A stretch of DNA of 32,000 nt from Candidatus Saccharimonadota bacterium (GTDB lineage Bacteria > Patescibacteriota > Saccharimonadia > Saccharimonadales > Saccharimonadaceae), in the NCBI GenBank assembly GCA_023898645.1, contig CP060232.1, forward strand, positions 810,001 through 842,000, in the 5' to 3' direction. This document shows, one piece after another, positions 5,326 through 29,539 of the stretch. Positions within the stretch are counted from its first letter, which is position 1; each line of letters begins with the position of its first letter. Below the pieces are notes generated by a model. That model was not told where the DNA came from and made no database searches. It worked only from the letters and a program-made list of their open reading frames with translations. The position numbers and the translations under genes are program-made.

Positions 5326-5399
5326 AAGGCGCATGGCGCAACCATAATGAGCTACGCCAAAATACATAGCTCGACGCTCAAGAACTTTGCTCAAACACT

Positions 5400-5408
5400 T
5401 GCTATAAT
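5400..5408 (+). promoter_or_regulatory. Extended -10 TGcTATAAT, 6 nt before ATG 5415
   Basis: ctTGcTATAATataaatATG read directly; no SD. Confidence 0.55.
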
Positions 5409-5414
5409 ATAAAT

Positions 5415-5627: not shown

Positions 5628-5643
5628 TTAACCAAGATAGAAA

Positions 5644-5673
5644 AAAGCCGCGCAGTATAAGCCGCGCGGCTTT
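5644..5673. terminator. Bidirectional intrinsic terminator between convergent genes
   Basis: Stem aaagccgcgc / gcgcggcttt, flanked by an A-run upstream and a T-run downstream. Confidence 0.7.
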
Positions 5674-5694
5674 GTAGTAGGAAAGGTACGAGGT

Positions 5695-5958
5695 TCAAAG
5701 ATCTTCGTCGTCAGTGCTGGGCCGATTGTCTCGACTCAAGCGTGGTACTGCGCCTTTTGTCAACGCAATCACAACGATGGCTAGCGCGTATAGCGCCACT
5801 GCACCGAAAAACACAGTCAGTCTGTCGCCGTATGATTGCGATGCATCAGGTGGCAGTGTAGCCGCATAGGCAATCCCGGCAGAAGCCGCGACAATCATCA
5901 CGACGTTGAGCCAGCCTTGCCATGCAAAGGGCGGCCGCTTTTTAGGATTTTGTGTCAT
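5695..5958 (-). CDS. Small 2-TM membrane protein with acidic C-terminus (paralogue of 15510-15809)
   Basis: 87 aa counted from internal Met 70 of ORF 5695-6165. The longer form overlaps the upstream gene and is Arg-rich with no recognisable features. Shared blocks with the paralogue are QGWL..., LPP and ...D(D/E)ED(L/F). Confidence 0.6.
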   Translation of the reverse strand: MTQNPKKRPPFAWQGWLNVVMIVAASAGIAYAATLPPDASQSYGDRLTVFFGAVALYALAIVVIALTKGAVPRLSRDNRPSTDDEDL

Positions 5959-5978
5959 GATCAGAAACGTGTCCAATC

Positions 5979-6251
5979 TCACTCGTCGACATAGTGATGC
6001 CGGGCTTCCAGCAACTCCTCGTCGTGCTCTAGCTGCCGTTCCCTCATGGGATGACGCAAGGCCAGCACTACGTACACGGTGAGGAAAGTCAACGCGCCGA
6101 CCGTAGCGTCGTTTGTCAGGTATCCTGCGAAAAACGACACGACACCCGGAACGACCGGAAACCACATGAGCTTACGCTCATATACGCTTACGATCACCAT
6201 GATTACCACGGTTGTCAGACCAGCCCTGAGGACTGCTTCCCACAAACTCAT
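5979..6251 (-). CDS. Small membrane protein, unknown function
   Basis: 90 aa counted from Met 14 of ORF 5979-6290. AAGGAG lies 5 nt upstream of this ATG on the minus strand. TM stretches are present. Confidence 0.6.
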   Translation of the reverse strand: MSLWEAVLRAGLTTVVIMVIVSVYERKLMWFPVVPGVVSFFAGYLTNDATVGALTFLTVYVVLALRHPMRERQLEHDEELLEARHHYVDE

Positions 6252-6390
6252 CTTTGCTCCTTGTTTCAGAACGTTAGCATACGAACGCATGCCAATGGTA
6301 TATTTTTATCACATTTTCACTAAAAATTCAAATAACTAGCAGCCCTTGCGCTTTATTTACTGCTGAGATTACATTTAACAAAATTAATAG

Positions 6391-6420
6391 TTGCAATATT
6401 TGGTGCATGAGGCGTACAAT
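6391..6420 (+). promoter_or_regulatory. Candidate sigma70-type promoter TTGCAA-18 nt-TACAAT for the prkA operon
   Basis: TTGCAA at 6391-6396 and TACAAT at 6415-6420. The -10 hexamer lies inside copy 1 of the duplicated module. Confidence 0.45.
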
Positions 6421-6476
6421 TGCTAGCAATACTCAAGGGGAAAGTATAAGCGTACAATTGCTAGCAATACTCAAGG
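6412..6476 (+). promoter_or_regulatory. Duplicated 27-nt module (period 38 bp), each copy containing TACAAT and the 12-bp palindrome ATTGCTAGCAAT: candidate tandem promoter/operator
   Basis: gcgtacaattgctagcaatactcaagg occurs at 6412-6438 and identically at 6450-6476. The palindromes are at 6419-6430 and 6457-6468. Confidence 0.6.
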
Positions 6477-6485
6477 AGGAGACAT

Positions 6486-8417
6486 ATGGCAGAACGTATC
6501 GAAACGAATAACGCCAAACATAATCTGTTCGCAAAGATCGACCAGCACAAAGGAGATCTGGAACGTTTACGGTGGGAGGGGTCATTCGGGGAATACGTCG
6601 ACATGGTTGTCGAAAATCCTGCTATATCTAGAACTGCGCATCAGACTGTATATAAAGCCCTGACTTCTCGTGAGGACTTCTTTACCACCGGACGCAACGC
6701 GCTGTTTGGAGCCGAAGAAGCAACTAGTCGTTACATCGAAATCCTGAAAGCAGGCGCTGAAGGTTTGGAACTAGGCAAACGAATCATCTTGCTTGTAGGC
6801 CCTCCGGGCAGCGGTAAGTCAACGCTTGTCAACGGAACAAAGCGCGGCATAGAAGAGTACAGCAAGACCGACGAAGGTGCGCTGTACGCGATCAAAGGCT
6901 GCCCAATGTTCGAAGATCCGCTACACCTGATACCACACGACATGCGCCCGATGCTCGGTGAAGAATACGGCGTACATATAGAAGGCGACTTATGCCCTCA
7001 GTGCGCCGACAAATACGGACGAGAACACGTGACCGCAGACAACCTGAAAGATGTTCGCGTAGAACGCCTGATACTTTCCGAAAAAGACCGCGTGGGAATC
7101 GGCACGTTCAAACCGTCTGACCCGAAGTCACAAGACATTACCGAACTTGTCGGTAGCGTGGACTACTCGAAGATCGGCGAGCTTGGATCTGCTTCCGACC
7201 CAAATGCGTACCGTTTTGACGGCGAGCTTAACGTCGCCAACCGTGGCGTCATGGAATTCGTAGAAATGCTCAAGAGCGACGAGCGATTCCTGTACTCACT
7301 GCTCGACCTAGCGCAAGACCGCGTAATCAAAAGCCCGCGATTTTCAAACATCTCGGCCGACGAAGTGATATTAGCTCATACCAACCTGACAGAATACAAA
7401 CGCTACGTCAGCGATCCTAAAAACGAAGCTCTCCGCGATCGAATCGTCGTCATACCAGTGCCGTACTCGCTACGCGTTTCGGACGAAGCGAAGATCCACG
7501 AAAAGCTAATTGGCGACAGCGAGCAGGTACGTGCAGCGTCGGTTCACATCAACCCGCACACACTACAGACCGCAGCAACATTTGCCGTATTGTCCAGACT
7601 CAAGCCGTCTGCCAAATATACAAAGGTGCAAAAACTCAAGATTTATGACGGCAAAGAAACCAACGGTTTGTCGCAGCGCGACATAAAAGAGCTACGTGCC
7701 GAGCACCCAGACGAAGGTATGTCAGGTATATCGCCACGTTACATCATCGATTCACTGTCGATGGCGCTTACCACGCAAGGCAGCAGCAAAAAATGTCTGA
7801 CTCCTATCGACACCATCCGCGCGCTTCGCGAAAACTTAGATCGTCACCCGCACACACGCGACATGAAAAAGGAAGACAAAGACGCGCTGCTCGACGACAT
7901 TGCGAACGTCAAAGCCGAGTTTGACGAAGCTGCCAAAAAGGAAGTACAGAGCGCGTTTATATTCTCATACGAAGACACCGCCCGAACACTTTGCGACAAC
8001 TACCTGGCAAACATCGAAGCGTTTTCGACTCAGTCAAAAATCGTAGACCACATTACCGATGAAGAATCCGAACCAGACGAAAGACTAATGCGCAGCATCG
8101 AAGAGCAGATCGGCGTGAGCGAAAGCGGTAAAAAAGAATTCCGCAACGAACTGTTGATTCGCATAGGCTCGACTCTCCGCAGCGGCAAAACGTTTAACTA
8201 TACGTCGCACCCACGGCTAAAAGAAGCGATTGAAAAGAAGCTATTTGCAGACATGAAAGACGTCGTCAAACTGACCACAAGCACGTCGGTACCAAATGAC
8301 GAACAGCAAGATCGTATCCGCGGCGTGGAACGAACACTTGTCGAAGATCGAGGCTACTGCCCACACTGTGCCTCAGAGCTACTACGCTATGTCGGCACAC
8401 TACTAAGCCGCTCATAG
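6486..8417 (+). CDS. prkA: PrkA/YeaG family serine protein kinase (AAA+ like)
   Basis: 643 aa with Walker A LLVGPPGSGKSTL. Length and overall layout match PrkA/YeaG. SD AAGGAGG at 6473-6479. Confidence 0.93.
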   Translation: MAERIETNNAKHNLFAKIDQHKGDLERLRWEGSFGEYVDMVVENPAISRTAHQTVYKALTSREDFFTTGRNALFGAEEATSRYIEILKAGAEGLELGKRIILLVGPPGSGKSTLVNGTKRGIEEYSKTDEGALYAIKGCPMFEDPLHLIPHDMRPMLGEEYGVHIEGDLCPQCADKYGREHVTADNLKDVRVERLILSEKDRVGIGTFKPSDPKSQDITELVGSVDYSKIGELGSASDPNAYRFDGELNVANRGVMEFVEMLKSDERFLYSLLDLAQDRVIKSPRFSNISADEVILAHTNLTEYKRYVSDPKNEALRDRIVVIPVPYSLRVSDEAKIHEKLIGDSEQVRAASVHINPHTLQTAATFAVLSRLKPSAKYTKVQKLKIYDGKETNGLSQRDIKELRAEHPDEGMSGISPRYIIDSLSMALTTQGSSKKCLTPIDTIRALRENLDRHPHTRDMKKEDKDALLDDIANVKAEFDEAAKKEVQSAFIFSYEDTARTLCDNYLANIEAFSTQSKIVDHITDEESEPDERLMRSIEEQIGVSESGKKEFRNELLIRIGSTLRSGKTFNYTSHPRLKEAIEKKLFADMKDVVKLTTSTSVPNDEQQDRIRGVERTLVEDRGYCPHCASELLRYVGTLLSRS

Positions 8418-8453
8418 ATTTACCCGACACACTAACAAAAGAGGGGAAAGCGC

Positions 8454-9599
8454 ATGGAAAACCACGAACAAAGGAATATGTCGGTATCGCGCCAAGACTG
8501 GACGTTTGATCGGCGCATAGAGCGCGACGAAAACCGTCACAATGACAAAGTTAAAGAAGCGATTCGCGACAACCTAGACTCCGTCGTGAGCGACGGCACT
8601 ATCGTGACGGCCGACCCTCGTAGCAAAAGAATAATCAAGGTACCTATGCGCTCAATCGAGCTGCCGCACATTCGCTATGGCGAACCAAAAGACGGCATAG
8701 GTACGGGCTCGGGCAAGGGCAAACCAAAACCGGGCGACAAAGTAGGTACCGATCCTGAAGCTGGCGACCAAGCAGGCGAAGAATTTTACGAAGCCGAGAT
8801 GACAATCGCCGAAATTCAAGAAATGGTATTTGCCGACCTAGGCTTGCCGAACCTGAAACCCAAAGGCGAGCCGACGATCAACGAAACTGAAATTGTATAC
8901 AACGACGTACGAAAAAAGCGCACAACTACCAACCTAGACATGGGGCGCACCATACTACAAAACCTGTTGCGCAACGCCAAAGAAACAGGCGAGGCAAAAA
9001 TACACGGCATATCACCGGAAGATTTTCGCGTGCGCACATGGGAAGAAGAACAGCGGCCAAAAGACAGCGCCGTAGTCGTAGCCATGGCCGACATATCGGG
9101 CTCGATGGGCGAGTTCGAAAAATACGTCACCCGGGCGTTTTGCTGGTGGACGGTATCGTTTTTGCGTACCAAATATCCGTCGGTCGAAGTGGCATTTATA
9201 GCACACGACACCGAAGCATACGAAGTCACCGAAGAGCAATTCTTTACCCGTGGTTCGAGTGGCGGCACCAAGTGCTCGAGCGCCAATCGCAAAGCACTGG
9301 AACTCATAAATGACCGCTACCAGACCGATCGCTACAACGTATACCCGCTGCATTTTTCGGACGGCGACAACTGGTCGACAGACAACCCCGACTGCGTGAA
9401 TCTGGTACAAGAGCTGCTTAACAGCGACATCAGCCAATACGCCTATGTGCAAATAGGAAAGACCAGCCGCAGCCAGCTACTCGACGCCTACACTGACGGC
9501 ATCCACGACGACCGATTCAAGGGACTCATGATCCAGCAAAAAGAAGACGTACTGAAAGCACTCAAGCAAGTATTTACCGTGGAGCAGGGGAACGCATAA
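8454..9599 (+). CDS. yeaH: YeaH/YhbH family protein (DUF444, VWA-like)
   Basis: 381 aa. N-terminal DWTFDRR...RHNDKVKEAIRDNL and a MIDAS-like DISGSM motif are present. SD GAGGGG lies upstream. Confidence 0.88.
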   Translation: MENHEQRNMSVSRQDWTFDRRIERDENRHNDKVKEAIRDNLDSVVSDGTIVTADPRSKRIIKVPMRSIELPHIRYGEPKDGIGTGSGKGKPKPGDKVGTDPEAGDQAGEEFYEAEMTIAEIQEMVFADLGLPNLKPKGEPTINETEIVYNDVRKKRTTTNLDMGRTILQNLLRNAKETGEAKIHGISPEDFRVRTWEEEQRPKDSAVVVAMADISGSMGEFEKYVTRAFCWWTVSFLRTKYPSVEVAFIAHDTEAYEVTEEQFFTRGSSGGTKCSSANRKALELINDRYQTDRYNVYPLHFSDGDNWSTDNPDCVNLVQELLNSDISQYAYVQIGKTSRSQLLDAYTDGIHDDRFKGLMIQQKEDVLKALKQVFTVEQGNA

Positions 9600-11152
9600 T
9601 GACAGGCGAGTTCCAACCGCAAGCAGCAACAAACCACGAATACGCGGCCGAGGACCAAGAGCTGGAGCAGGCGCTCGAACATATATGGGATATTGCGCTC
9701 GAAAATCACCTTGATCCGTTTCCGACGAATTTTGAAGTAGCGCCAGCTAGTGTCGTGTACCAGATCGGTGCGTACGGCATACCGGGGCGGTTTTCACACT
9801 GGACCTATGGCCGCGCGTACAGGCAGATGAAAACGCAGTACGACTACGGTCTGTCGAAGATTTACGAACTTGTCATCAACAGCAATCCGTCGCAGGCGTT
9901 TTTGCTTGAAAACAATCCGCCAATCGACAACAAATTCGTCATGGCCCACGTGCTGGGACACACTGACTTTTTCAAAAACAACGCAACATTTGCCAACACA
10001 CGCCGCGACATGCCCGAAGCCGCCGCACGTAGCGCTATGCGGATTCAGTCGTACGAAGATCATGAAGGACGCATGGCAGTAGAGCAAACACTCGACGCAG
10101 CACTGGCTATCGAACAGCACATCGACCCGTATCATATCCACCGACTCGACCGCAACGAAGAGCTAAAGCAATGGCGCGCGCAAGCAGCCAAAAACGCTAA
10201 ACCAGCCCGCGAAGGTGATAGTGAGTTTGACGACCTGCTACCACGATCGGGTAGTGTGGAGCAAAACCTCGGACGCCAAGCACTTGCCATGATGATACCG
10301 CCAGCGCCCGACCAAGATTTGCTAGGGTTTATACGCAACCACGCACCATACCTGGAAGATTGGCAGCGCGACGTCGTCGATATCGTACGTAGCGAGTCAC
10401 TGTATTTTTATCCGCAGCGCCGCACCAAGATCATGAACGAGGGCTGGGCCGCCTACTGGCACAAACGAATCATGCGTGAAATGGGCGATCGCGGACTCAT
10501 AACTGACGCCGAAAACGAAGCGTGGTGGAAGCTACACTCGGGCGTAGTAGGACCAAACCCACGATCAATTAACCCGTACTATTTGGGCATGAAGATTTAT
10601 GAATACATCGAAGATTACTACAACGGCACGCTAACCGATGAAGAGACTGCGCAGCTACAAAAAGAGGGTGTACCGACATACCCACGCTACGATGGTCCAC
10701 TCAAAGATAGTCCGGCTATGCCGCACCTGCGCGAAGCCATGATGTACAACGATGATCAATCGTTTATACGCAATTACTTCAACAAGATCATTGCTGATCG
10801 CACCGAGATGTATATATACGAAGAACGTCGGCTCTCGCCGTATCATCAGCCCGAAATGGTAGTTGCCGATGACGGCTGGTTGCGTATACGCGACATGCTG
10901 ACAAAGTCTATGGACAACAACGGTACACCGCGGATAGACGTGATAAACGGTGATCATAGCCGTGCTGGCGAACTATACCTCAAACACGAATTTGACGGGC
11001 GATCGCTCGATCCGCAATACGTCGAAAAGACCCTACCTTACATACACGCTCTATGGCGACGCCCGGTGCACATCGAAACGCGCGAGGCAGCTGGCAACAA
11101 AGTGCTTATATATACGTACGACGGTAAAAAAGTCAAAAAGCACACCAAATAG
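9599..11152 (+). CDS. spoVR: SpoVR/YcgB family protein
   Basis: 517 aa with the blocks FSHWTYGR and MAHVLGHTDFFKNN. The start overlaps the yeaH stop (TAATG at 9597-9601). Confidence 0.9.
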   Translation: MTGEFQPQAATNHEYAAEDQELEQALEHIWDIALENHLDPFPTNFEVAPASVVYQIGAYGIPGRFSHWTYGRAYRQMKTQYDYGLSKIYELVINSNPSQAFLLENNPPIDNKFVMAHVLGHTDFFKNNATFANTRRDMPEAAARSAMRIQSYEDHEGRMAVEQTLDAALAIEQHIDPYHIHRLDRNEELKQWRAQAAKNAKPAREGDSEFDDLLPRSGSVEQNLGRQALAMMIPPAPDQDLLGFIRNHAPYLEDWQRDVVDIVRSESLYFYPQRRTKIMNEGWAAYWHKRIMREMGDRGLITDAENEAWWKLHSGVVGPNPRSINPYYLGMKIYEYIEDYYNGTLTDEETAQLQKEGVPTYPRYDGPLKDSPAMPHLREAMMYNDDQSFIRNYFNKIIADRTEMYIYEERRLSPYHQPEMVVADDGWLRIRDMLTKSMDNNGTPRIDVINGDHSRAGELYLKHEFDGRSLDPQYVEKTLPYIHALWRRPVHIETREAAGNKVLIYTYDGKKVKKHTK

Positions 11153-11225: not shown

Positions 11226-11897
11226 ATGGCAAATTCATTTTCGTTTGAAATTTGTAAGGATGTCAGTGCCACAGACATCTCTATTGACCCTGTAATGGCC
11301 AGTCTCGAAAGTATGCGCGAACATACTGGCGAGATAGATATCATAGATACTGATCACTTGATTGAGTTTCCAGACTCAGACAGCGAAAGAATACGCCCAC
11401 GCCAGCTTGGCATCAAGCAAATGGCAGACTTTGCGTTAGTACTTACCAACAAGCCAATCGGCGAAGAGGACGAAAGAACCAAGGGTTTCACGTATTCATT
11501 CCCAGACGGTAAGCCACTCGGACTTCGCGCGTCAATAATATCTACCCACGACAATTATAATCTTGAAGTCGTGACAGACCACGAGGTAGGGCATTTGTTC
11601 AACATGGTTAACCACGGTGAAAAACACGACGGCAACGGCCACTGCACCGACGAAGAATGTATGATGCACAAGAGCCTTACAAGAGCGCTTGAAAGAACCG
11701 TATACGTGAGCAACGAGAACGGCGAAGAGCATCGCACTATAGGCGAGACTCGACCGACGTACCTCAAAAAGCGCCTGTGTCAGACATGCGAGTCGCTCTT
11801 TGCATACAATACCCAAGTCCTTTTGGACGCAAAGCGAGGCAAAGAGGTCGCGAATAGTCTGGTTTTTGCCGCAATGGCACGCGCCGGTCACCTGTAA
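11226..11897 (+). CDS. Archaemetzincin-like (peptidase M54-like) zinc metallopeptidase, paralogue A
   Basis: 223 aa with the signature HEVGH-x15-HC-x4-CMM-x37-CQTC. The N-terminal layout parallels paralogues B and C. Confidence 0.7.
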   Translation: MANSFSFEICKDVSATDISIDPVMASLESMREHTGEIDIIDTDHLIEFPDSDSERIRPRQLGIKQMADFALVLTNKPIGEEDERTKGFTYSFPDGKPLGLRASIISTHDNYNLEVVTDHEVGHLFNMVNHGEKHDGNGHCTDEECMMHKSLTRALERTVYVSNENGEEHRTIGETRPTYLKKRLCQTCESLFAYNTQVLLDAKRGKEVANSLVFAAMARAGHL

Positions 11898-12609: not shown

Positions 12610-13356
12610 ATGCGAATCATGCGGTTGCTTATGGCAGCTACGCTATCGTTTGGCGCTGCACTGATGGGCGCCACTGGTGCTCATGCTGATACATTGCCGA
12701 TCAATTGCAATGCTCACGTTCTAGACGCGACAACCTCGGGAGGTGTCGACACGGCTTTTATCCAGAAAAAGATCGACAGCCTCCGTGCAGTTTCACCGAC
12801 AGCCGATATTTATATCCAGGCGTACCAAAACCTCCCAGGTGGAGGCGCAGGGCAGTTTTGGCAGGCGGGTCTACAACAATGCTCGAATTGGAGATCTGCG
12901 TCGGGCAACCGTGCAGCCGACAATGTACTCGTAGCAGCATATGGCGTTGATTCAGGCGGACTTGCATTGTACTACGGCAAAGATTTCGCCTTGGCGATGT
13001 CTACCTACGAAAAAGAAATCCGCTCCACCGTGTTGATTGAGTTGGCAAATTTGAACGGCCAGCCAGGCAATCTTGACTACGTGACAAGTGGTTTGGCGCA
13101 AGTACTGATGAATGCGGAATTCTATATCAGAAATTCGCAGTACTATTCGGAAGTTGACGGCATCTACTATCCACCGGTAACTTCTGTCCCCGCAGTTGAG
13201 GAATTCCGCTTCGAACCGACTGCGTTCATCAAAGCTAGTGGCCTCGGGCTGCTTTTGATTGTTGGATTTGGACTACTCGTCGTGGTTCTTTCTCCTGCAG
13301 CGAAGCATCTGTCGCGGTTTGTACCGCCCGAACTCAAAATAGGCAGGCCTATGTAA
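12610..13356 (+). CDS. Secreted protein with C-terminal membrane anchor, possibly TPM-like domain
   Basis: 248 aa. Signal peptide MRIMRLLMAATLSFGAALMGATGAHA and C-terminal TM GLGLLLIVGFGLLVVVL are present. The central region only loosely resembles a TPM domain, so the function call is weak. Confidence 0.65.
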   Translation: MRIMRLLMAATLSFGAALMGATGAHADTLPINCNAHVLDATTSGGVDTAFIQKKIDSLRAVSPTADIYIQAYQNLPGGGAGQFWQAGLQQCSNWRSASGNRAADNVLVAAYGVDSGGLALYYGKDFALAMSTYEKEIRSTVLIELANLNGQPGNLDYVTSGLAQVLMNAEFYIRNSQYYSEVDGIYYPPVTSVPAVEEFRFEPTAFIKASGLGLLLIVGFGLLVVVLSPAAKHLSRFVPPELKIGRPM

Positions 13357-13382
13357 GAGCTGGGTCTAATGGGAAATAACTA

Positions 13383-13416
13383 GCCGGAGCTGCGCATCAG
13401 CGTAGCTCCGGCATTT
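13383..13416 (+). terminator. Intrinsic terminator-like hairpin
   Basis: A 13-bp stem (gccggagctgcgc / gcgtagctccggc, one G-U pair) with loop atca is followed by attt. Confidence 0.65.
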
Positions 13417-13504
13417 ACCCCTGTCTTTATATGAAGGTAGAGGTGAATCAAATGTCAGCACGATATCGTTAATCTACGGTGCAATAAAAGGTATTGTCGC
13501 AACT

Positions 13505-13729
13505 ATGAAAATCACAGTCACAGTAAAACCAGGCAGCAAAAAAGGACCGCTAGTTCAGCCAGATCTACTGGGTGGATATTTAGTATACGTGCGCGAGCCA
13601 GCGATTGAAGGCAAAGCAAATCGTGCTGTAGCAGAAATGCTAGCAAAATTTTTTGATATACCGAAAACTAAGGTCATATTGGTGCGTGGTGCAACCAGTA
13701 AGATAAAGGTATTTGAAATCCCAGAATAG
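13505..13729 (+). CDS. DUF167 (YggU-like) family protein
   Basis: 74 aa. The pattern KITVTVKPGSKK...EPAIEGKANRAVAEMLAKFF...VILVRGATSKIKVFEI matches YggU/UPF0235. Confidence 0.8.
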   Translation: MKITVTVKPGSKKGPLVQPDLLGGYLVYVREPAIEGKANRAVAEMLAKFFDIPKTKVILVRGATSKIKVFEIPE

Positions 13730-13730
13730 A

Positions 13731-13955
13731 CTATTCGTTCCAGTCGTCTGGTAGAGTGTCGGGGATTTTAGTATGCCCAACTTCGTAATCTACATAACTG
13801 TCGCGAGAATTTGCAGTAGCAATGCGGCGCAAATCCGCCTCGCCGAAACTGGCTTGTTCAAATCCGTCGCCCATGATGCTAAGCACAGTTCGTGCAGCCT
13901 TTTTTATGCGCGCTGATATGCTCTCACGATTGTCGTTGTATGATTCATAATTCAT
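13731..13955 (-). CDS. Hypothetical small acidic protein
   Basis: 74 aa counted from Met 9 of ORF 13731-13979. TATAAT (minus strand, 13962-13967) lies 6 nt upstream of this ATG. Confidence 0.5.
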   Translation of the reverse strand: MNYESYNDNRESISARIKKAARTVLSIMGDGFEQASFGEADLRRIATANSRDSYVDYEVGHTKIPDTLPDDWNE

Positions 13956-14849: not shown

Positions 14850-14877
14850 TTGACTGCATACTTATAAGTGCTATCAT
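14850..14877 (+). promoter_or_regulatory. Promoter TTGACT-16 nt-TATCAT, 8 nt before ATG 14886
   Basis: TTGACT at 14850-14855 and TATCAT at 14872-14877; no SD. Confidence 0.55.
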
Positions 14878-14885
14878 TCACTTAC

Positions 14886-15449
14886 ATGCACTATAACCGC
14901 AATCTCAGCATAGAGATATTCCGGGACAGTGAAACGCCCGATGTCCAAGTTGACCTTGCCGTGACGGCCCTGGAAGAAATACGACAAATCACAAAACATA
15001 TAGAAATCGTTGAACGTGGAAATGTGCTGCAACTGAGCGAGCCAGGTGTCGACGCTGTGTACACAAAAGATGTGCCGCTACACAAAATTCAAACTGATTT
15101 TGGCATTATACTTTCAAGCCGTCCGCTTGTGTTGCCGACTATGCTAGGGCAACCGCCAAACACAGGAAACATAACGGTAGGCAATGCGTGGGTAGGGCTA
15201 GACAAACCATTTGCTGTCATAGACGCTGAGCGTACGTACTCACTCAAAAACTCGACCAAACACGAAGTAGGGCATTTCATAGGAGTGCCGCGAAAAGGCA
15301 AATACTTTGACGGTGACTGTCACTGCAATCGCCCGAACTGCGTGATGCACTCCATGACCAAAATCGAAATCGAACAAGATGATTATTGCCACAACTGTAC
15401 CGCGCAGCTTGCCAAAAATGCGTTTAATTTAATGAGACTCAAAAAGTAA
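14886..15449 (+). CDS. Archaemetzincin-like (M54-like) zinc metallopeptidase, paralogue B
   Basis: 187 aa counted from ATG 14886. The ORF track begins at GTG 14868, which lies inside the predicted promoter. Signature HEVGH-x15-HC-x4-CVM-x13-CHNC. Confidence 0.7.
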   Translation: MHYNRNLSIEIFRDSETPDVQVDLAVTALEEIRQITKHIEIVERGNVLQLSEPGVDAVYTKDVPLHKIQTDFGIILSSRPLVLPTMLGQPPNTGNITVGNAWVGLDKPFAVIDAERTYSLKNSTKHEVGHFIGVPRKGKYFDGDCHCNRPNCVMHSMTKIEIEQDDYCHNCTAQLAKNAFNLMRLKK

Positions 15450-17134: not shown

Positions 17135-17743
17135 CTAGATGAGTTTTGATTTTTTGGCGGCCGCAATGCCTACAAATACGCCCAAGCCAACTTTTGCCAC
17201 GTCAAGCGCCTGAAAGCCAATTTTTTTGAGTAGTTCTTTGCGTTTGACGCTTGGCTTTTGTTCGTAATTTTCTGCACTAATGGCAGAAAGTTGGTTCATG
17301 TCGGCTTGAAAACACATCTGGTACAACTCGAGAACTTGCTCGGCCACACTCTCGTCATCGTTGTCGTCGCTCTCAGATTCTAGTAAATAGCTGCGTAGCG
17401 AATCAAAAGCATCGTTTGCCACAGTGTATGGCTCATCCTTGCTTCCACTGATTTCATTGAGAAATGCAACGCGTTGGATTTCGAGCCCTCTGGCGTATTC
17501 AATCATTTCATTTATATTTTCAACGCTACCGGACTCGTCGTCGATTTGCTCAAGTGCAATCCGTACCGCACTTAAATGCGCAGATGCGGCCTTTTCAAGT
17601 GGGTCGCCGTTTTTTAAAAGAGGTTTTTCTGCAAAGGCAGTGCATAAGTCCTTGATGTCCGAGAGTTGATCGAGTATACGCATGTCGATGAATGCCGTGC
17701 CTTCCAGCTTGAAATCGTCTTCACCAGTAAACTCGTGATTCAT
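17135..17743 (-). CDS. Acidic, predicted helical protein with C-terminal tail-anchor TM, unknown function
   Basis: 202 aa. An acidic stretch ESESDDNDDES is present, and the C-terminal hydrophobic segment is VAKVGLGVFVGIAAA followed by KKSKLI. Confidence 0.65.
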   Translation of the reverse strand: MNHEFTGEDDFKLEGTAFIDMRILDQLSDIKDLCTAFAEKPLLKNGDPLEKAASAHLSAVRIALEQIDDESGSVENINEMIEYARGLEIQRVAFLNEISGSKDEPYTVANDAFDSLRSYLLESESDDNDDESVAEQVLELYQMCFQADMNQLSAISAENYEQKPSVKRKELLKKIGFQALDVAKVGLGVFVGIAAAKKSKLI

Positions 17744-17749
17744 GACGAG

Positions 17750-17778
17750 ACTATATCATAAGTAACAAAAAACGTCAA
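17750..17778 (-). promoter_or_regulatory. Near-consensus promoter TTGACG-17 nt-TATAGT, 6 nt before ATG 17743 (minus strand)
   Basis: The minus strand reads TTGACGttttttgttacttatgaTATAGTctcgtcATG. Confidence 0.6.
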
Positions 17779-17950
17779 AGATAAATTCTAATACAGAGAT
17801 TTTCTTGGTAATTTGCTTAATTTACAAAAATATGGTAAATTAAGTATAGAAAAGTCATTACGACGAAATCACTAAAAAGAAGTCTCTACCCCAAACTCAG
17901 TAGTTTACTCCCAAACAAGCGATCAGCCTAACGCGCAAGGAGAAACAACT

Positions 17951-18166
17951 ATGAATATTTACAATCACAAAAAAGAAATTTCACTTAATCAATGGCAGAA
18001 AAATCTCGAAATAGCTAACGACATTGAAACAGAAAGAGTTCGAGCAGAAATTGCAGGAATCAAACAAGCATATACGGACAAGTACGGCCCGCCAGACGTA
18101 GTGGAGGGGCTATCTCATGACGGCGTAGTACGGCGAGACTCAAACACGGCGAAGCCGAACTCCTAA
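17951..18166 (+). CDS. Hypothetical small protein
   Basis: 71-aa ORF with SD AAGGAG 8 nt upstream of the ATG. Confidence 0.55.
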   Translation: MNIYNHKKEISLNQWQKNLEIANDIETERVRAEIAGIKQAYTDKYGPPDVVEGLSHDGVVRRDSNTAKPNS

Positions 18167-18169
18167 AAT

Positions 18170-18610
18170 TTGCCAAATATTGCGCAAGGTAAAACCAAGT
18201 TTGATACAATGTACGGTATTATGTCGTCTGTTGAAGAATATGCTTATACGTTTCGGATGATCATACCGGAAAAATCACTGGTAGACTTAGAAAGTATAAG
18301 CGAGAAAATGATGAAAAATTCAGCAGAAGGCTCTACGCCCATGGTTGTATCGACTATTGACGATTACTTAACCATCAGCATCAACGAAGATACTGAATTT
18401 CCCGACGAGCGACTGCCATATGCTGTGATGCTGGCAAAAACCGCCTTGCGCGAATACGGTATAGAACGGCCGATGTTTATAAATGCCTACGCTACACGCA
18501 TGAACGGAGAAGATTTAGCTGACATTCACGAGCAAATAGTAATTGAAACCGAAGAAGACTACATAATCAATCTGACAGACGAACTAATGCAACACGAACT
18601 CAATAAATAG
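18170..18610 (+). CDS. Hypothetical acidic protein
   Basis: 146-aa ORF if it starts at TTG 18170; an alternative ATG is at 18209. No family recognised. Confidence 0.5.
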   Translation: MPNIAQGKTKFDTMYGIMSSVEEYAYTFRMIIPEKSLVDLESISEKMMKNSAEGSTPMVVSTIDDYLTISINEDTEFPDERLPYAVMLAKTALREYGIERPMFINAYATRMNGEDLADIHEQIVIETEEDYIINLTDELMQHELNK

Positions 18611-24040: not shown

Positions 24041-24718
24041 CTACGATACGCGGACGGCGTAGACGACTAGGCGGTGATCGTAAGTACCTTGTGTCGCTAC
24101 ATAAGTTCCGGCGCAAGTCATAAGATTCAATCCTTGAGAACCGTCGCCATAGACACTCAACGCTTTGCCCATGTCAATATCGACTAGGGGTACTGTTTCT
24201 GTGTGTACTACACGGTATTTGAACGTTTGACCACCATAGTTTACGCTGATAATTTGACCTTCACGAACACTGTGAAGCTTAGCAAAGACGCCGTCAACAT
24301 GACCGTCCAAAAATGCCGCGCCATCCACACCGGGTCGAGCGCTACCAATCCAATGACCAACCTGTAGGCTGGAAGGTACGTCAATATTGTTGGTTGCCGT
24401 TACGCCCACCTCGATGATAGACGACTGAAACCCGATAGATGGAATCGAGAGGCTGTTGCCTACGACAGCCGCAGCACGAGGCTTAGCAGGCTGAGCAGCA
24501 GACACGTTCTTAGTCGACGCCGTGAACACTTGTGGTTTAGATATGCTTGAACTTGGAGAATTTTGGCTTGAGTTTTGAGCAGCTTGCGGCAGCGCGAGCT
24601 CTTGCGTGTGAGGGTTTTCTGATGAGTAGGCAGGTGTTGCCGCCCAAACAGTGACACAGAGATTAACACCGACCATAAGAGCGGCGAAAGCTGACAATAA
24701 ACTAGTACGTCGTTGCAT
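24041..24718 (-). CDS. Sortase family transpeptidase (class F-like)
   Basis: 225 aa counted from Met 7, with GGGAG 6 nt upstream. There is an N-terminal TM helix. LSIPSIGF, the catalytic His in FLDGHVD, Cys in LMTCAG and Arg in HRLVVYA are present. Confidence 0.85.
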   Translation of the reverse strand: MQRRTSLLSAFAALMVGVNLCVTVWAATPAYSSENPHTQELALPQAAQNSSQNSPSSSISKPQVFTASTKNVSAAQPAKPRAAAVVGNSLSIPSIGFQSSIIEVGVTATNNIDVPSSLQVGHWIGSARPGVDGAAFLDGHVDGVFAKLHSVREGQIISVNYGGQTFKYRVVHTETVPLVDIDMGKALSVYGDGSQGLNLMTCAGTYVATQGTYDHRLVVYAVRVS

Positions 24719-24890
24719 ATAATTCTCCCAATGCATGTCTGCAAATAAAAAACCCCGGACAGTCGCCCTCCGGGATCTATATGAACTTAATATAATTATA
24801 TCAGAAAACTACAAAAAATGCAAGCGTGTACGAGGGGTCCCGTCTGGTTACGTCTCGTCCGCTAGACAATTGGTATACAATGGGTGCAAT

Positions 24891-25535
24891 ATGACATCGG
24901 AAAACGTTCCCGCCATAAAGCCTAACAAGCAGTTTCCGATAGGTGATGTCGTCTATGATAGCCACCGAAACAAAAAAGTATCTGAGTGGTTCGAAAGAGT
25001 AGAGGACATGGACCGCGACGGGTATTCGGCGCACGTCAACTTCCACCATGCGCCAACATCGCAAGACGGTGAAAAAGCATGTTTGACGCACGACGCTGCA
25101 GTGCGACTTTGTCAAAGTTGGGACAATTCACGAGCAGATGGTGTACCGGCCTCACATGTAGGGTATAGACTAGTTATGACCTTCAATCAGCAGGCTCGAC
25201 TACTACCAAAGTGTGACGTAGACCTGACCAAGCAATTGACTCAAATGTGCGAGCAGCAAAAGCACTTGGCGCGTGAATTCGCGCGCTTTGCATGGGAAAG
25301 TATCGCTGACTATCCGCACGTATACGCAGTTTATGAGCGTTTACTCGAAATTGGCCGGACGCGGTTCGCCCTAGACGACGAAGAAGATCGCGATTATTTT
25401 AAAGCGGGCATGGCGCTGCCATTCATGTTTGCCTGGACAAGCAGGCTCGAAGGCTACACACCGAAATTTTCAGGCATGATAGAAACGACTGGCGAACCAG
25501 ACAGTGACAGTTTCGGTCGATGCTTTACGACCTGA
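24891..25535 (+). CDS. Unknown-family protein, paralogue 1 (family shared with 27923-28642)
   Basis: 214 aa counted from Met 53 of ORF 24735-25535; the longer form would overlap the sortase start region. TACAAT at 24876-24881 lies 9 nt upstream. Confidence 0.6.
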   Translation: MTSENVPAIKPNKQFPIGDVVYDSHRNKKVSEWFERVEDMDRDGYSAHVNFHHAPTSQDGEKACLTHDAAVRLCQSWDNSRADGVPASHVGYRLVMTFNQQARLLPKCDVDLTKQLTQMCEQQKHLAREFARFAWESIADYPHVYAVYERLLEIGRTRFALDDEEDRDYFKAGMALPFMFAWTSRLEGYTPKFSGMIETTGEPDSDSFGRCFTT

Positions 25536-25539
25536 CCAA

Positions 25540-26100
25540 CTAGTTCGAGCCTGATTCGTACGCAAGGCTATATGACGGTGAAATTTCACCGGTTACATTG
25601 TCATACGGCGCACCAAACAGCGCGACGCAACGACGCAACAATTCGGCATGAATGCGCTCCATGTCTGGCTCGCCAATCACTTCCGTCAGCAAATGTTCAG
25701 TCTCTGTAGGTAGATGCTTTGCAATCAAGCTATCGCTCAAGGCAAATGATCGTATGCGCCAGCTTAGCGCGGCGTCTACGGTTGGCAATGGGTTTCCGAT
25801 GCAAGCTTCGCAGGCCGGAACGCCAAGACACGCTACAGTCTTGAGATTTACGTCAGGCTTCGTCCACGTGTCGGGCTTTCCCCATATCATATACGCGAAG
25901 TCTCTTGCGCGTCCTCGATCCATAGTCGGGTCATACGAGTGAACTATCACTGCATCGTCTTCGTTCTGTTTCCTGATACCGATTACTCGTTCGTGCAATA
26001 CGTCGCTAAACACGACCGGATGTAAATCATCCGGCTCAAACGGCTCACCGTTTTCGCATTTCCATAAATCTCGTACTGGAATACCCCAAATTTTTCGCAT
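25540..26100 (-). CDS. Hypothetical protein
   Basis: 186-aa ORF with SD CAGGAG 5 nt upstream (minus strand). No family recognised. Confidence 0.6.
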   Translation of the reverse strand: MRKIWGIPVRDLWKCENGEPFEPDDLHPVVFSDVLHERVIGIRKQNEDDAVIVHSYDPTMDRGRARDFAYMIWGKPDTWTKPDVNLKTVACLGVPACEACIGNPLPTVDAALSWRIRSFALSDSLIAKHLPTETEHLLTEVIGEPDMERIHAELLRRCVALFGAPYDNVTGEISPSYSLAYESGSN

Positions 26101-26203
26101 ATATACTCCTGTTTCGTAGGGACAAGGGTACTACACATTTATCGACCGTACAAATTTAATGTGTAGTTTGTGTCATAATTATATATAGACACAAGGAGGG
26201 TAT

Positions 26204-26602
26204 ATGAGAGGATTCGTAGCCAATATCGAAGAAATATCGAAAGCGAACACAAATTTTCGCCACGTTTTGTACACCGGACACAACGCACAGCTAGTCGTGA
26301 TGAGCATCGCGCCTGGTAGCGAAATCGGCATGGAAATTCACCCGGATAATGATCAGTTTTTGCGATTCGAAAGTGGAACAGGCAAGGTAATCATCGACGG
26401 CAATGAACATGACGTCAGCGATGGTTTTGCCGTGGTCGTACCAGCTGGCTCGGAGCATGACGTCGTAAACGTATCGCAAACCGAGCCGCTCCAGCTCTAC
26501 ACACTTTATTCACCGCCACATCACCAAGACGGGTTAGTACGTGCCACCAAAAAGGACGCCGAAGCTCATGAAATCGAATTCGACGGCGTAACGAGCGAAT
26601 AA
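26204..26602 (+). CDS. Cupin domain protein
   Basis: 132 aa. GSEIGMEIHPDNDQFLRFESGTG...VVPAGSEHDVVN shows the two cupin motifs. SD AAGGAGGG is present, with TGtCATAAT at 26171-26179. Confidence 0.85.
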   Translation: MRGFVANIEEISKANTNFRHVLYTGHNAQLVVMSIAPGSEIGMEIHPDNDQFLRFESGTGKVIIDGNEHDVSDGFAVVVPAGSEHDVVNVSQTEPLQLYTLYSPPHHQDGLVRATKKDAEAHEIEFDGVTSE

Positions 26603-26640
26603 ATAATCTACTCCGATTCTGAGGATGAAAACTTTATTTA

Positions 26641-26669
26641 TTGACAAGTATATTTTTTGATTTTATAAT
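26641..26669 (+). promoter_or_regulatory. Consensus promoter TTGACA-17 nt-TATAAT, 8 nt before ATG 26678
   Basis: TTGACAagtatattttttgatttTATAATcaccggtaATG read directly; no SD. Confidence 0.7.
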
Positions 26670-26677
26670 CACCGGTA

Positions 26678-27271
26678 ATGAAATTACCGCGAATAAGTGT
26701 TGAAGTATTTCGGGATCGCGGTTCGCCAGACGCGGCTGTTGAGCTTGCCGTACGCGCCCTGCAAGAAATGAATCTGATTTTTGATGATGGCTTAGGAGTT
26801 ATTGATAGCGGCCGGCTAGCCCCACTTGGTTATCCGGGCGTTTCACATGTCAATGTAGATGACGTGCCCACTATAGAGACAAGGGCAGATTACGGCGTAG
26901 TTATGACGCACAATCCACTCATATCGTCCCCTGGGCTACAGACAGAGTACGATGAGCGAAATGAAATAATAGTAGGTATAGCAATAACGAACGGTAAAGA
27001 AAAACCGTACGGAATAATCAATTCCGAATATCCAGAAGAAGTGTCAGAACGCGCTGTACAGCACGAGTTTGGTCACCTGATGGACGTCAAACGAAACGGT
27101 GAAAATTATGATGGCGAGTGGCACTGCAGCCTAGAACAGTGCACCATGTATCGTACAGCGACTCGCGAAAAAAGCGATTTTTGCAATGAGTGCGCCGACC
27201 AAGCTGCTAAATATTTGTTCATGCGACGCAGACAAAAAGCCGGACTACTACGCAGGCTTTTCGTCTTGTAA
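26678..27271 (+). CDS. Archaemetzincin-like (M54-like) zinc metallopeptidase, paralogue C
   Basis: 197 aa with the signature HEFGH-x15-HC-x4-CTM-x11-CNEC. The N-terminus ISVEVFRDRGSPDAAVELAVRALQE parallels paralogue B (LSIEIFRDSETPDVQVDLAVTALEE). Confidence 0.75.
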   Translation: MKLPRISVEVFRDRGSPDAAVELAVRALQEMNLIFDDGLGVIDSGRLAPLGYPGVSHVNVDDVPTIETRADYGVVMTHNPLISSPGLQTEYDERNEIIVGIAITNGKEKPYGIINSEYPEEVSERAVQHEFGHLMDVKRNGENYDGEWHCSLEQCTMYRTATREKSDFCNECADQAAKYLFMRRRQKAGLLRRLFVL

Positions 27272-27347
27272 AATTTCATCAGTTCTAAAGACCCTTACAA
27301 TACTCTGATTAGGTTCATATCTTTTAATTTGTTATAGTGTTTTCATT

Positions 27348-27902
27348 ATGTCGAACCCCGAAACACCTGAAGCATCCGGCGGACCAGACTTTGGCAACAT
27401 AGCCCCCGAGGATCAACAGTATTTACAAGAACTTAGTGACGCATTTGACCGATTACCTGAGCAACTCGAACACAGGCGAGCAATCTACATGGCCGATCTA
27501 CATATACGCAAAGAGACAATTGATCGCGCCATAGAGTCGCTGGAGCGGGATCAGCACGAAGCATACAAGCAAATTTATTCTCATGGGTTACGTAATCAAG
27601 AATCAAACACTAGGTTATCCTTTAAACAATACGTCGACACGTTATTTATGCTACCCGAAAGCAAGTTAAATGAACGAGCAAGGGCGCTAGAGTTTGCACT
27701 TAGTAGCGCGGACAGGTCGCAGTCAACTCTTAACGAAGCTATAAACGGGTTTATGAACCATTTCGATCCTTCCACTCTCCGTGATATGGTGGAAGAAATC
27801 ACGGCAATGACAGATTTAACAGAGGCAGCATCGCGCGCATGCGTCATCTACGACGCCTTAGTAAAACCAGCCGATCAATTGCTAAAACGCTTCGACACGT
27901 AA
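27348..27902 (+). CDS. Hypothetical acidic, predicted helical protein
   Basis: 184-aa ORF. No family recognised. Confidence 0.6.
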   Translation: MSNPETPEASGGPDFGNIAPEDQQYLQELSDAFDRLPEQLEHRRAIYMADLHIRKETIDRAIESLERDQHEAYKQIYSHGLRNQESNTRLSFKQYVDTLFMLPESKLNERARALEFALSSADRSQSTLNEAINGFMNHFDPSTLRDMVEEITAMTDLTEAASRACVIYDALVKPADQLLKRFDT

Positions 27903-27922
27903 CATGCTACACTGGGGGGCAC

Positions 27923-28642
27923 ATGTATACGAGGGACACTATACCGAAAATTCTACCCAATGAAAGCTTCCCTCTGGGCGACATAAAAGACTCACTTAAA
28001 GAGCAGGGTGCAAACGGGTGGCTGAACACCATAGAAAAACTGGATAATAATCAATTCAGGGCAAGGGTAAATTTATTTCATGCGCCAACCGCTACCATCG
28101 GATACGGAGCAGGGTACAGGACATTCAAAGCCGCGATGCTACTTTGTGGACAGTGGGACCTCGTGCAAGGCAACAATAGTAGCCTTGCTACTGTCGGGTT
28201 CAAAGTTGCAATGACATTTCAAAACGAAGTCCACTATCTTCCTAGCTCAAATCTAGATCTCACACTCCAACTAGCCCGCATGCAAAACTCAGAAGAACAA
28301 CTTTATCGCGCGCAGGATTTTGCCCGAGCAGCCTGGTACGGTATGTCGCAATATCCTAATGTATATGAAAAATTCGATCGCCTCCTAGAACATTCGCGAA
28401 TCAGATACCGTCTTTCACCTGAAGAAAACCGTGAATATTTCCAAGCTGGCATGGCACTTCCATACATGCTGTCGTTAACAACTGCGCTGGCGGAAAGCAC
28501 ACCTGAAATCAAAGGCATGGCTGACAGAACTGGTAAAAACTGGAACTTACAAACCACGCCGTTTCGTCAATTTTTTACAGACGAAGTAGAACTCGCCGAA
28601 GACAACATTATACCCAGCGACTATCTGGAACGTAACGAATAA
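27923..28642 (+). CDS. Unknown-family protein, paralogue 2 (family shared with 24891-25535)
   Basis: 239 aa counted from Met 29; the longer form overlaps the preceding gene. TACACT at 27908-27913 lies 9 nt upstream. Several conserved blocks are shared with paralogue 1. Confidence 0.6.
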   Translation: MYTRDTIPKILPNESFPLGDIKDSLKEQGANGWLNTIEKLDNNQFRARVNLFHAPTATIGYGAGYRTFKAAMLLCGQWDLVQGNNSSLATVGFKVAMTFQNEVHYLPSSNLDLTLQLARMQNSEEQLYRAQDFARAAWYGMSQYPNVYEKFDRLLEHSRIRYRLSPEENREYFQAGMALPYMLSLTTALAESTPEIKGMADRTGKNWNLQTTPFRQFFTDEVELAEDNIIPSDYLERNE

Positions 28643-28682
28643 ACTTGATAAATACATGAGTGTTTCATGCATAACTCGCTCA

Positions 28683-28691
28683 TGCTATAGT
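28683..28691 (+). promoter_or_regulatory. Extended -10 TGcTATAGT upstream of the small membrane protein gene
   Basis: caTGcTATAGT, followed by a leader with SD GAAGGAG before ATG 28747. Confidence 0.45.
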
Positions 28692-28746
28692 TAATCCACC
28701 ATCTATACAGCTGGTGTCCTTTCCCTACGATTCAGAAGGAGTTGCC

Positions 28747-28920
28747 ATGCAAACCTTCATCAACACGCTGGTCATGTTTCTTTTCATCATGAGTGTTTTG
28801 CTGGTCTCCGGCGCTAGCGTTGGAGGCGGCGTTTTACTCCTCGTCTGCGGCTTTGTATGCCTCGTGGCTTGCATCGCCCTAGGCAAGACCAAGAGCACCA
28901 TCTTTTCTGAAACAGTATAA
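28747..28920 (+). CDS. Small 2-TM membrane protein
   Basis: 57 aa counted from Met 12, with GAAGGAG upstream. The protein is almost entirely hydrophobic (FINTLVMFLFIMSVLLVSG... LLLVCGFVCLVACIALG). Confidence 0.55.
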   Translation: MQTFINTLVMFLFIMSVLLVSGASVGGGVLLLVCGFVCLVACIALGKTKSTIFSETV

Positions 28921-28990: not shown

Positions 28991-29539
28991 CTAGTCACGC
29001 GCAAAATCTAAACGGATTTGCAGCGCAGAAATCGTCGCGGCTAGCGCCTCGTACTGGGTAATCAACAGACTAAATTCGATAAGTTGCTTTTCATCGAAAT
29101 AAAACGCCAATCCAGCCCATGTGTTATCCGAAATCGTACGAGTAAGGACCATCTCATCGACCGCTTTGATCATCGCCCTGTGCCGATGCGTCAAACCATC
29201 GCAGTCAGGGTAGACGAACACTCTGTCTTGGAACTCAGAATCCAAGCCGTATTTACGAGCAATCCGACGATGATGCTGCAGCTCATACTCACATTTGCAC
29301 AGATGGGCAACACGTAAAATAACCAGTTCGGTGTCTTGACGCGGAATCCTACCGCCACCGAGAAGCATACCGCTAAACGGTAACCAGGCCCAAAACAGGC
29401 GCTTGTGTAATGCCAGCATGGCAAACAGGTGCATTTCCGGCGCGCCCACGGCGCGTGCGGCAATCCGACAAATTATCCAATTTATCAAACCGATATCGCG
29501 CAGACCGCGTGAGCGTATACGTCGTCGATCAATTGTCAT
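28991..29539 (-). CDS. Carboxymuconolactone decarboxylase (CMD/AhpD-like) family protein
   Basis: 182 aa. TELVILRVAHLCKCEYELQHHRRIARKYGL is a typical CMD-family block. SD AGGAGG lies upstream. Confidence 0.78.
   Translation of the reverse strand: MTIDRRRIRSRGLRDIGLINWIICRIAARAVGAPEMHLFAMLALHKRLFWAWLPFSGMLLGGGRIPRQDTELVILRVAHLCKCEYELQHHRRIARKYGLDSEFQDRVFVYPDCDGLTHRHRAMIKAVDEMVLTRTISDNTWAGLAFYFDEKQLIEFSLLITQYEALAATISALQIRLDFARD

Follow-up and report, generated by a model that had tools for sequence, protein, structure and literature searches.

The 32,000-nucleotide stretch of Saccharibacteria DNA analysed here (the window) contains two open reading frames (ORFs), FAM_A and FAM_B, that lie 3 kb apart in a seven-gene block and encode paralogous members of an undescribed protein family. 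This family is rare and is found only in Candidatus Saccharibacteria. With moderate confidence, the locus is read as a pair of anciently diverged A-type and B-type paralogues that would act as non-enzymatic binding or adaptor proteins, would each be expressed from a promoter of their own, and are situated in a variable stretch in which no functional module has been demonstrated. The two genes are as follows:

24891..25535, plus strand: FAM_A, A-type member of an all-helical Saccharibacteria family, 214 amino acids (aa); identified by the FAM_B alignment, its orthologues and an AlphaFold2 model
27923..28642, plus strand: FAM_B, B-type member of the same family, 239 aa; identified by orthologue identities and its clade in a neighbour-joining tree

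Paralogy and translational starts

BLASTP alignment of FAM_A with FAM_B shows 82/204 identities (40%) with an E-value of 2e-56, which bears out the first-pass annotation of this DNA, where the two ORFs were called paralogues. All of the motif blocks named in that annotation are found in the alignment: VNFHHAPT/VNLFHAPT, LC..WD, VG[YF][RK]..MTF, DLT.QL, FAR.AW, YP.VY, RLLE, YF[KQ]AGMALP[FY]M and TP...GM...TG. The mechanical ORFs open further upstream, at 24735 for FAM_A and 27839 for FAM_B, and the starts chosen earlier, 24891 and 27923, are the right ones, as M1 and the N-terminal motif are conserved family-wide and the orthologues begin at the same Met. No third family copy was identified when the window, translated in six frames, was searched with a profile. 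That the two ORFs are non-genes, or that their resemblance is a product of chance or low complexity, is refuted by the E-value between the paralogues, the confident AlphaFold2 structure prediction and the 78 homologous clusters with conserved length and N-terminus described below, and this explanation retains almost no probability.

Family size, distribution and absence of known relatives

Among 5.8 billion proteins, 14 of the family were detected by a word-indexed search. An exhaustive comparison of a hidden Markov model (HMM) with 1.84 billion cluster representatives gave 78 clusters at E<=1e-3, 38 of them at E<=1e-30. The proteins matched in this way are 160-290 aa in length, with one matched stretch in nearly every case, and members of the family are generally about 190-290 aa. 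When the word-indexed search was repeated with a 74-sequence profile, six proteins were returned and nothing was added. The named genome records of the family are two Candidatus Saccharibacteria metagenome-assembled genomes and no others. Scans with a degenerate pattern, which reaches close relatives only and is not a census, identified two loci in genome contigs, one in metagenome contigs and none in viral contigs. No family homologue was found in viral contigs, phage records or plasmids.

Neither FAM_A nor FAM_B matches any family at E<=1 in Pfam and NCBIfam or at E<=0.1 in PHROGs and PADLOC. Ten distant family members are also without a Pfam match, and a comparison of 74 members with Pfam at E<=5 found no family that is matched by more than one of them. 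The sole match in the PDB sequence-profile search is "Gogy" (7bqq; E 0.007, 44 residues), a de novo designed helical protein, and this match was treated as composition noise and rejected as a relative. A literature search found no paper describing the family and none linking Saccharibacteria with archaemetzincins. The earlier label of an unrecognised family therefore stands, with nothing in the four domain libraries, no credible PDB sequence match and no Foldseek neighbour in the PDB or BFVD, and the proposed remote-homology check, run as profile searches with both paralogues and a fold search with FAM_A, gave no known function. The family is undescribed as both a sequence and a fold family, being absent from the curated libraries and structure collections searched.

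As a phenomenon the family is ordinary, that is, a lineage-restricted hypothetical family in a genome of the Candidate Phyla Radiation (CPR). The lineage-enriched families of the CPR are described as "primarily hypothetical proteins" (Méheust et al. 2019, PMC6744442). The FAM family is like them in that it is small, conserved, confined to one CPR lineage and without an annotated function. Many of the CPR-enriched families are linked to membranes or pili, whereas the FAM family is predicted to be soluble and cytoplasmic and has no transmembrane segment.

Predicted fold and putative function

The AlphaFold2 model of FAM_A, built from a 14-sequence alignment, has a predicted local distance difference test score (pLDDT) of 84.7 and a predicted template modelling score (pTM) of 0.80. 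The model predicts an ordered, non-helical N-terminal arm (P7, F15-P16-x-G18-D19) followed by nine helices. Foldseek analysis against the PDB (best E 0.84, template modelling (TM) score <=0.31) and against BFVD (best E 0.58, TM<=0.39) did not provide a hit at E<=1e-3 or TM>=0.5. Heme oxygenase, TenA, 14-3-3 and globin were considered as fold relatives and rejected, all with TM<0.31. The heme-oxygenase/TenA-type bundles (1iw1 HmuO, 1yaf TenA) do resemble FAM_A in being single-domain, all-helical proteins of ~210-220 residues with full-length Foldseek alignments, but with E-values of 1.7-3.1, TM-scores of 0.24-0.26 and a root-mean-square deviation of ~14 Å they have a different fold by the usual criteria, and the FAM family is without the conserved heme or metal-ligand His/Glu. 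With such non-significant scores, the HmuO/TenA relationship was a failed lead.

Over 74 members, W77 is invariant, M1, P7, F15, P16, D19, L73, G91, P106, A172 and L176 are conserved at >=90%, and M119, F130, A134, W135, M138 and Y178 are conserved at 85-89%. Conservation is thus almost wholly aromatic or hydrophobic; D19 is the only polar residue at >=90%, and the other conserved polar positions are Y178 (89%) and a His at 141 (66%). No conserved His/Glu/Cys cluster and no catalytic or metal-binding constellation was found across family members. FAM_A and FAM_B contain no hydrophobic or transmembrane segment and have isoelectric points (pI) of 5.2-5.5, and the family is mostly acidic and single-domain. 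The orthologues are as conserved as those of the backbone genes, since FAM_B is 76% and the neighbouring CMD/AhpD-family protein (CMD) 79% identical to the counterparts in the closest relative, L001, and this is read as purifying selection. Because of the missing catalytic or metal-binding set, the aromatic-hydrophobic core with its N-terminal arm, the cytoplasmic location and the purifying selection, a soluble cytoplasmic protein with a non-enzymatic binding or adaptor role is tentatively put forward as the likeliest function of the family. Such a protein could bind either another protein or a hydrophobic compound.

Age of the duplication and local copies at other loci

Loci designated by L and a number are the fetched loci that contain family members. 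FAM_A is 66% identical to the L006 protein, 57% to L001 and 56% to L012. FAM_B is 76% identical to L001_B (the second L001 copy), 50% to L004 and 44% to L010, compared with 40% to FAM_A, and the neighbour-joining tree places FAM_A and FAM_B in different clades. Because FAM_B is closer to the L004 and L010 proteins than to FAM_A and the two fall in separate clades, the duplication is judged to be old, predating the divergence of the compared genomes, with the A-type and B-type proteins forming separate subfamilies. No DNA-level repeat was found that links FAM_A with FAM_B or bounds the block.

Two or three family copies separated by a few kb also occur together at other loci, where the intervening genes vary and include pilin-like N_methyl proteins:

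L017: copies at 1683-2357 and 4026-4703
L019: copies at 5341-6069 and 9001-9678
L004/L008 contig: three copies

The L017/L019 pair results from a duplication separate from the A/B split of the window, as seen in the neighbour-joining tree. These two loci, which belong to a distant clade of the family, also encode a convergent Zn_peptidase (PF04228) that adjoins a family member or is separated from it by a single gene, at 5505-6428 (minus strand) in L017 and 9772-10716 (minus strand) in L019.

Genes of the block and its borders

The remaining genes of the block and the two genes that border the variable stretch are as follows:

24041..24736, minus strand: sortase (PF04203, E 6e-19), encoded divergently from FAM_A by a gene of the conserved backbone that delimits the variable stretch on the left
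25540..26100, minus strand: 186-aa protein, accessory gene on the opposite strand, with a GGAG Shine-Dalgarno (SD) motif
26204..26602, plus strand: Cupin_2 protein, 132 aa (PF07883, E 1.2e-15)
26678..27271, plus strand: "M54-like C", a divergent Zn peptidase of the metzincin type that has a Cys4 motif, 197 aa; identified by an invariant motif and a PDB profile
27348..27902, plus strand: unk184, acidic helical-bundle protein, 184 aa (pI 4.8, AlphaFold2 model)
28747..28920, plus strand: predicted small membrane protein, 57 aa, with two hydrophobic segments (grand average of hydropathy 1.66, maximum 19-residue hydropathy 2.79)
28991..29539, minus strand: CMD (PF02627, E 1.1e-9), encoded by a conserved backbone gene that delimits the variable stretch on the right

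The products encoded between and after the two copies agree with their first description as a 186-aa minus-strand protein, a cupin, an HExxH/Cys4 peptidase, an acidic helical 184-aa protein and a 57-aa hydrophobic protein. It also holds that four of the seven products belong to no recognised family, as both paralogues and the 186-aa and 184-aa proteins are without a Pfam or NCBIfam match. The 186-aa protein has no PDB match either, and its only homologue is found in L004 (4569-5243; 40% identity, E 5e-39) in another context. The cupin scores well above the Pfam gathering threshold for PF07883 (57.4 bits against a cutoff of 27.2, covering profile positions 2-69 of 70). The 57-aa protein has a weak homologue in L001 (10813-10959, E 4e-5). 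PHROG matches within the block are limited to families of unknown function, strong for the cupin and weak for unk184 and the 186-aa gene.

The unk184 protein has seven homologues, one of which is named [quoted passage not shown]. Its AlphaFold2 model (pLDDT 85.8) contains eight helices, and Foldseek against the PDB provided only generic designed-bundle, Sso2 and translin-like hits at E>0.2. No profile similarity between unk184 and the FAM family was detected with hhalign. A 165-aa paralogue of unk184 is encoded in L001 (2548-3045) and L006 (3482-3979), with HMM E-values of 2e-15 to 2e-17. It adjoins the gene for a 202-aa acidic protein, which precedes TauE in L001 and a 146-aa homologue in L006. 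The equivalent place in the window (17743-18170) contains only a 71-aa ORF (17951-18166).

The peptidase and its paralogues

The peptidase at 26678-27271 shares an invariant HExxH...G..D..HC-x4-CxM...CxxC motif with four other sequences, two being paralogues within the window and two being orthologues. C150, C155, M157, C169 and C172 are invariant in all five, so that the CX4CXM...CXXC arrangement of a second metal site is present. This Cys4 arrangement resembles the archaemetzincin signature, HEXXHXXGX3CX4CXMX17CXXC. HEFGH is invariant and is followed by LMDVKR; the full metzincin zinc site HEXXHXXGXXH is absent, as the protein lacks both the Gly at +7 and the His at +10. The L012 orthologue alone has a His at +10, and three conserved residues, G141, D145 and H149, follow nearer the C-terminus.

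Profile comparison with the PDB ranks adamalysin-type snake venom metalloproteinases first (E 4.5e-6), with archaemetzincins at E 0.17-2.6 (2x7m, E 0.17). The protein has no Pfam match, including to PF07998, and scores 13.6 bits against the NF033823 cutoff of 145 (E 0.05); paralogue B (17.4 bits against a cutoff of 24.4) and the L001 orthologue (12.2 bits) are also below the archaemetzincin threshold. Like the archaemetzincins (MEROPS M54, PF07998/NF033823), it contains HExxH followed by HC-x4-CxM and a distal CxxC, and like the adamalysins (M12B) its C-x4-CxM block aligns with the Met-turn region "HCNAPSCIM". It differs from the archaemetzincins in having ~8 extra residues between HExxH and the first Cys, in missing the canonical Gly and third His, and in scoring below the curated thresholds. 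The earlier designation "M54-like" is accordingly retained for the archaemetzincin-like Cys4 site and dropped for family membership, the scores falling short of the PF07998 and NF033823 cutoffs and the canonical motif being incomplete. Because the archaemetzincin models are below threshold and the adamalysins are ranked first, the protein is classified by its sequence features as a metzincin that is divergent and has a Cys4 site like that of the archaemetzincins, not as an M54 member by score. Three paralogous metzincin-like peptidases are encoded within the 32 kb (11226-11897, 14868-15449 and 26678-27271). All three score below the M54 thresholds of Pfam and NCBIfam, and they may form a new subfamily of metzincins that has expanded in this lineage.

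Promoter elements

The following promoter-like elements are located within the block:

24876..24881, plus strand: -10-like hexamer TACAAT, 9 nt before the FAM_A ATG
26641..26669, plus strand: sigma-70 consensus promoter TTGACA-17-TATAAT (12/12 match), ending 8 nt before the metzincin start
27908..27913, plus strand: -10-like hexamer TACACT, 9 nt before the FAM_B ATG and 6 nt after the unk184 stop

The upstream regions of the two copies had been reported as similar. This similarity is real, with TACAAT and TACACT each placed 9 nt before an ATG, and it is explained by a habit of positioning the -10 box next to the start codon that is seen across the window. A -10-like hexamer (TATAAT, TATACT, TATAGT or TACAAT) is found 5-11 nt upstream of 12/32 gene starts in the window compared with 13% of random positions, examples being the starts at 215, 2322, 3006, 14800 (minus strand), 17743 (minus strand), 24891, 26678, 27348 and 27923. 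A special regulatory element common to both copies was rejected, as the TACAnT-9 nt-ATG arrangement is a -10 box beside the start codon, like those of these 12 genes. The hexamer next to the ATG is also observed at family members in L001, L006, L012, L010, L014, L004, L008, L013 and L017, and the FAM_B-type hexamer is conserved at L001_B, L014 and L004.

No SD sequence is found at 11 of the 12 starts, and FAM_B is SD-like only through a G-run; other genes have a clear GGAGG. Within the block, unk184 has TATAGT 9 nt before its ATG, and the cupin and the 186-aa gene, the latter on the opposite strand to the rest of the block, have GGAGG-type SD sites. With a separate -10 element at the start codon of FAM_A, of the metzincin, of unk184 and of FAM_B, the sequence suggests that they are transcribed separately and that the block is not one operon. 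FAM_A and FAM_B, each under its own promoter, would then probably give rise to leaderless mRNAs, and the pattern in the window points to leaderless or near-leaderless transcription for a large proportion of the mRNAs of this Saccharibacteria genome.

Conservation of the neighbourhood

Neighbours were sought within 6-10 kb of family members with HMM searches. The backbone around the family is broadly syntenic, with ABC-F, TauE, FKBP, RRM and the sortase on one side (left in the window) and CMD, unk143 (a 143-aa protein) and MetK on the other (right in the window). The sortase is beside or near the family in L001, L006, L012, L010 and L004. CMD forms the right border in L001, L006 and L012 and directly adjoins a family member in L008 and on the P0041 contig. 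It also lies 9 kb from another family copy on the L004/L008 contig. Among the related genomes that share the arrangement, the sortase is 52-60% and CMD 67-79% identical. Gene content from the sortase to CMD in these genomes is as follows:

Window: FAM_A, 186-aa gene (minus strand), cupin, metzincin, unk184, FAM_B, 57-aa protein
L001: NAD-binding gene, FAM_A, 63-aa ORF, cupin, metzincin, unk184, FAM_B, small membrane protein
L012: FAM_A, metzincin, unk184
L006: FAM_A, 113-aa protein, unk184

FAM_A and unk184 are both present in all four, and unk184 is the most consistent neighbour of FAM_A in this close clade. The metzincin accompanies FAM_A in the window, L001 and L012 only, an HMM search of L006 having found none. 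Besides the window, the L001-L003 lineage alone among the fetched loci has the cupin, and even L001 lacks the 186-aa gene at this position. Sensitive HMM searches did not identify a metzincin or unk184 near the family members of L004/L008, L010, L013, L014, L017, L018 or L019. The cupin and a homologue of the 186-aa protein are likewise not beside family members at the distant loci, the L004 homologue of the latter being in another place.

The neighbourhood-conservation check proposed for the block thus fails beyond a narrow clade (window, L001, L006 and L012). Because the genomes that share the arrangement are related and also share its flanks, the shared arrangement is weak and non-independent evidence, and since those flanks (TauE, sortase, CMD and unk143) are common to all four genomes, the arrangement may be plain synteny. 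Of the undescribed functional module that had been suggested, the recurrence of FAM_A and unk184, possibly with the metzincin, in the close clade weakly stands, and the seven-gene unit does not, being without co-occurrence at distant loci. A functional module is accordingly weakly supported and limited to these two or three genes. The block would instead consist of a locally conserved pair or trio (FAM_A, unk184 and usually the Cys4 metzincin) with accessory insertions, namely the cupin and the 186-aa gene. A mobile-element, prophage or defence-island origin was rejected: there are no bounding repeats, no tRNA in the window, no Rfam match, no phage, plasmid or viral homologues and no match in the PADLOC defence library.

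Alternative explanations

Several points weigh against the reading of the paralogues as separately expressed binding or adaptor proteins without a demonstrated module. The non-catalytic role is argued from absence, both of conserved catalytic residues and of homologues, and the family may be a novel enzyme that works through D19, Y178 and H141 or with the help of a bound cofactor. Foldseek performs poorly on all-helical folds and the comparison covered the PDB and BFVD, so that a known fold may have been missed, and leaderless transcription is predicted from the sequence. In the window, L001 and L012, three of the four related genomes, FAM_A, the metzincin and unk184 are co-oriented and spaced by 41-92 nt (with other genes between FAM_A and the metzincin in the window and L001), and L006 keeps FAM_A and unk184 around an unrelated 113-aa gene; this run is compatible with a real functional link, in a sample that is small and closely related.

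The same run is what argues for a three-part module of the family, a Zn-metallopeptidase and unk184, in which, for example, the FAM protein would inhibit, chaperone or regulate the cytoplasmic Cys4 metzincin or be cleaved by it as a substrate, with FAM_B as a variant of different specificity. The retention of FAM_A with unk184 in L006 is in its favour, as is the presence in L017 and L019 of a family member beside the unrelated Zn peptidase of PF04228. Such a module is unlikely, in that L006 has no metzincin, the window metzincins at 11226-11897 and 14868-15449 have no family member alongside, and family members in L004/L008, L010, L013, L014 and L018 have neither a metzincin nor unk184 within 6-10 kb. 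The promoters are separate, the L017/L019 peptidase is on the opposite strand and its adjacency may be due to chance, and with three metzincin genes in 32 kb a chance adjacency is not unlikely in the window either. A shade less probable again is a broader form of this idea, that FAM and unk184 are a Saccharibacteria-specific, novel-fold helical pair that partners Zn-metallopeptidases as regulator, inhibitor or substrate-adaptor, with the Cys4 metzincin here and the PF04228 peptidase in L017/L019, the A and B copies having different specificities or forming heterodimers.

The lowest standing among the functional proposals is shared by two others. The family could be a novel-fold enzyme of small-molecule or redox metabolism working with the cupin and the CMD/AhpD-like protein, given that the window, L001, L006, L012, L008 and P0041 all have CMD beside the family or close to it (adjacent and divergent in the last two) and that the two copies flank the cupin in the window and L001. 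This is improbable, as D19 is the only polar residue at >=90% and no His/Glu/Cys cluster is conserved, the cupin occurs in one lineage besides the window, CMD is a conserved backbone gene that also stands 9 kb from another L004/L008 copy, and the distant loci have neither cupin nor CMD. Equally improbable is a diversifying family with a role of the immunity, antitoxin or anti-defence type, whose genes would undergo repeated duplication in a genomic hotspot. The two or three nearby copies with variable genes between them in the window/L001, L004/L008, L017 and L019, the separate duplication of the L017/L019 pair and the location in a variable stretch all point in this direction. Against these stand the lack of any PADLOC or PHROG match to the family and of phage, plasmid or viral-contig homologues, the absence of a recognisable toxin neighbour at the fetched loci, and the well-conserved orthologues (FAM_B 76% and CMD 79% to L001), which are unlike an arms race.

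Other features of the window and related loci

A complete trio of PrkA, DUF444 (YeaH-like) and SpoVR genes is located at 6486-11152 (plus strand) in this ~1.1 Mb genome, with Pfam E-values of 6e-101, 5e-80 and 3e-116, respectively, and is directly followed by the metzincin paralogue at 11226-11897. The left end of the window encodes a Schlafen-group-3-type helicase domain protein at 215-2203 (PF09848, E 8e-78), and beside it, at 2322-2912, an IS200-like Y1 transposase-fold protein (PF01797, E 4e-9). In L018, a locus on a 657-kb metagenomic contig, a heliorhodopsin gene (13141-13905) lies 3.4 kb from a distant family member, and SMODS/SLATT genes are found at the edge of the locus.

Significance of the family

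Saccharibacteria are ultrasmall episymbionts with genomes of roughly 1 Mb, and the contig to which the window belongs measures 1.13 Mb, a usual size in the group. As genomes so reduced retain one to three copies of the family, it probably benefits the cell. It has so far been tied to no epibiotic lifestyle, known pathway or open question, and CPR genomes are already rich in lineage-specific hypothetical families (PMC6744442). The surrounding "module" calls for caution, being mostly backbone synteny with accessory insertions. The value of the locus lies in a clean family definition, comprising 78 clusters, conserved motifs and the A-type and B-type subfamilies, and in the accompanying sign that many genes of this genome may be leaderless. 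The confident nine-helix model, for which there is no PDB or BFVD neighbour, may represent a new fold, and the family could become an entry of its own in Pfam.

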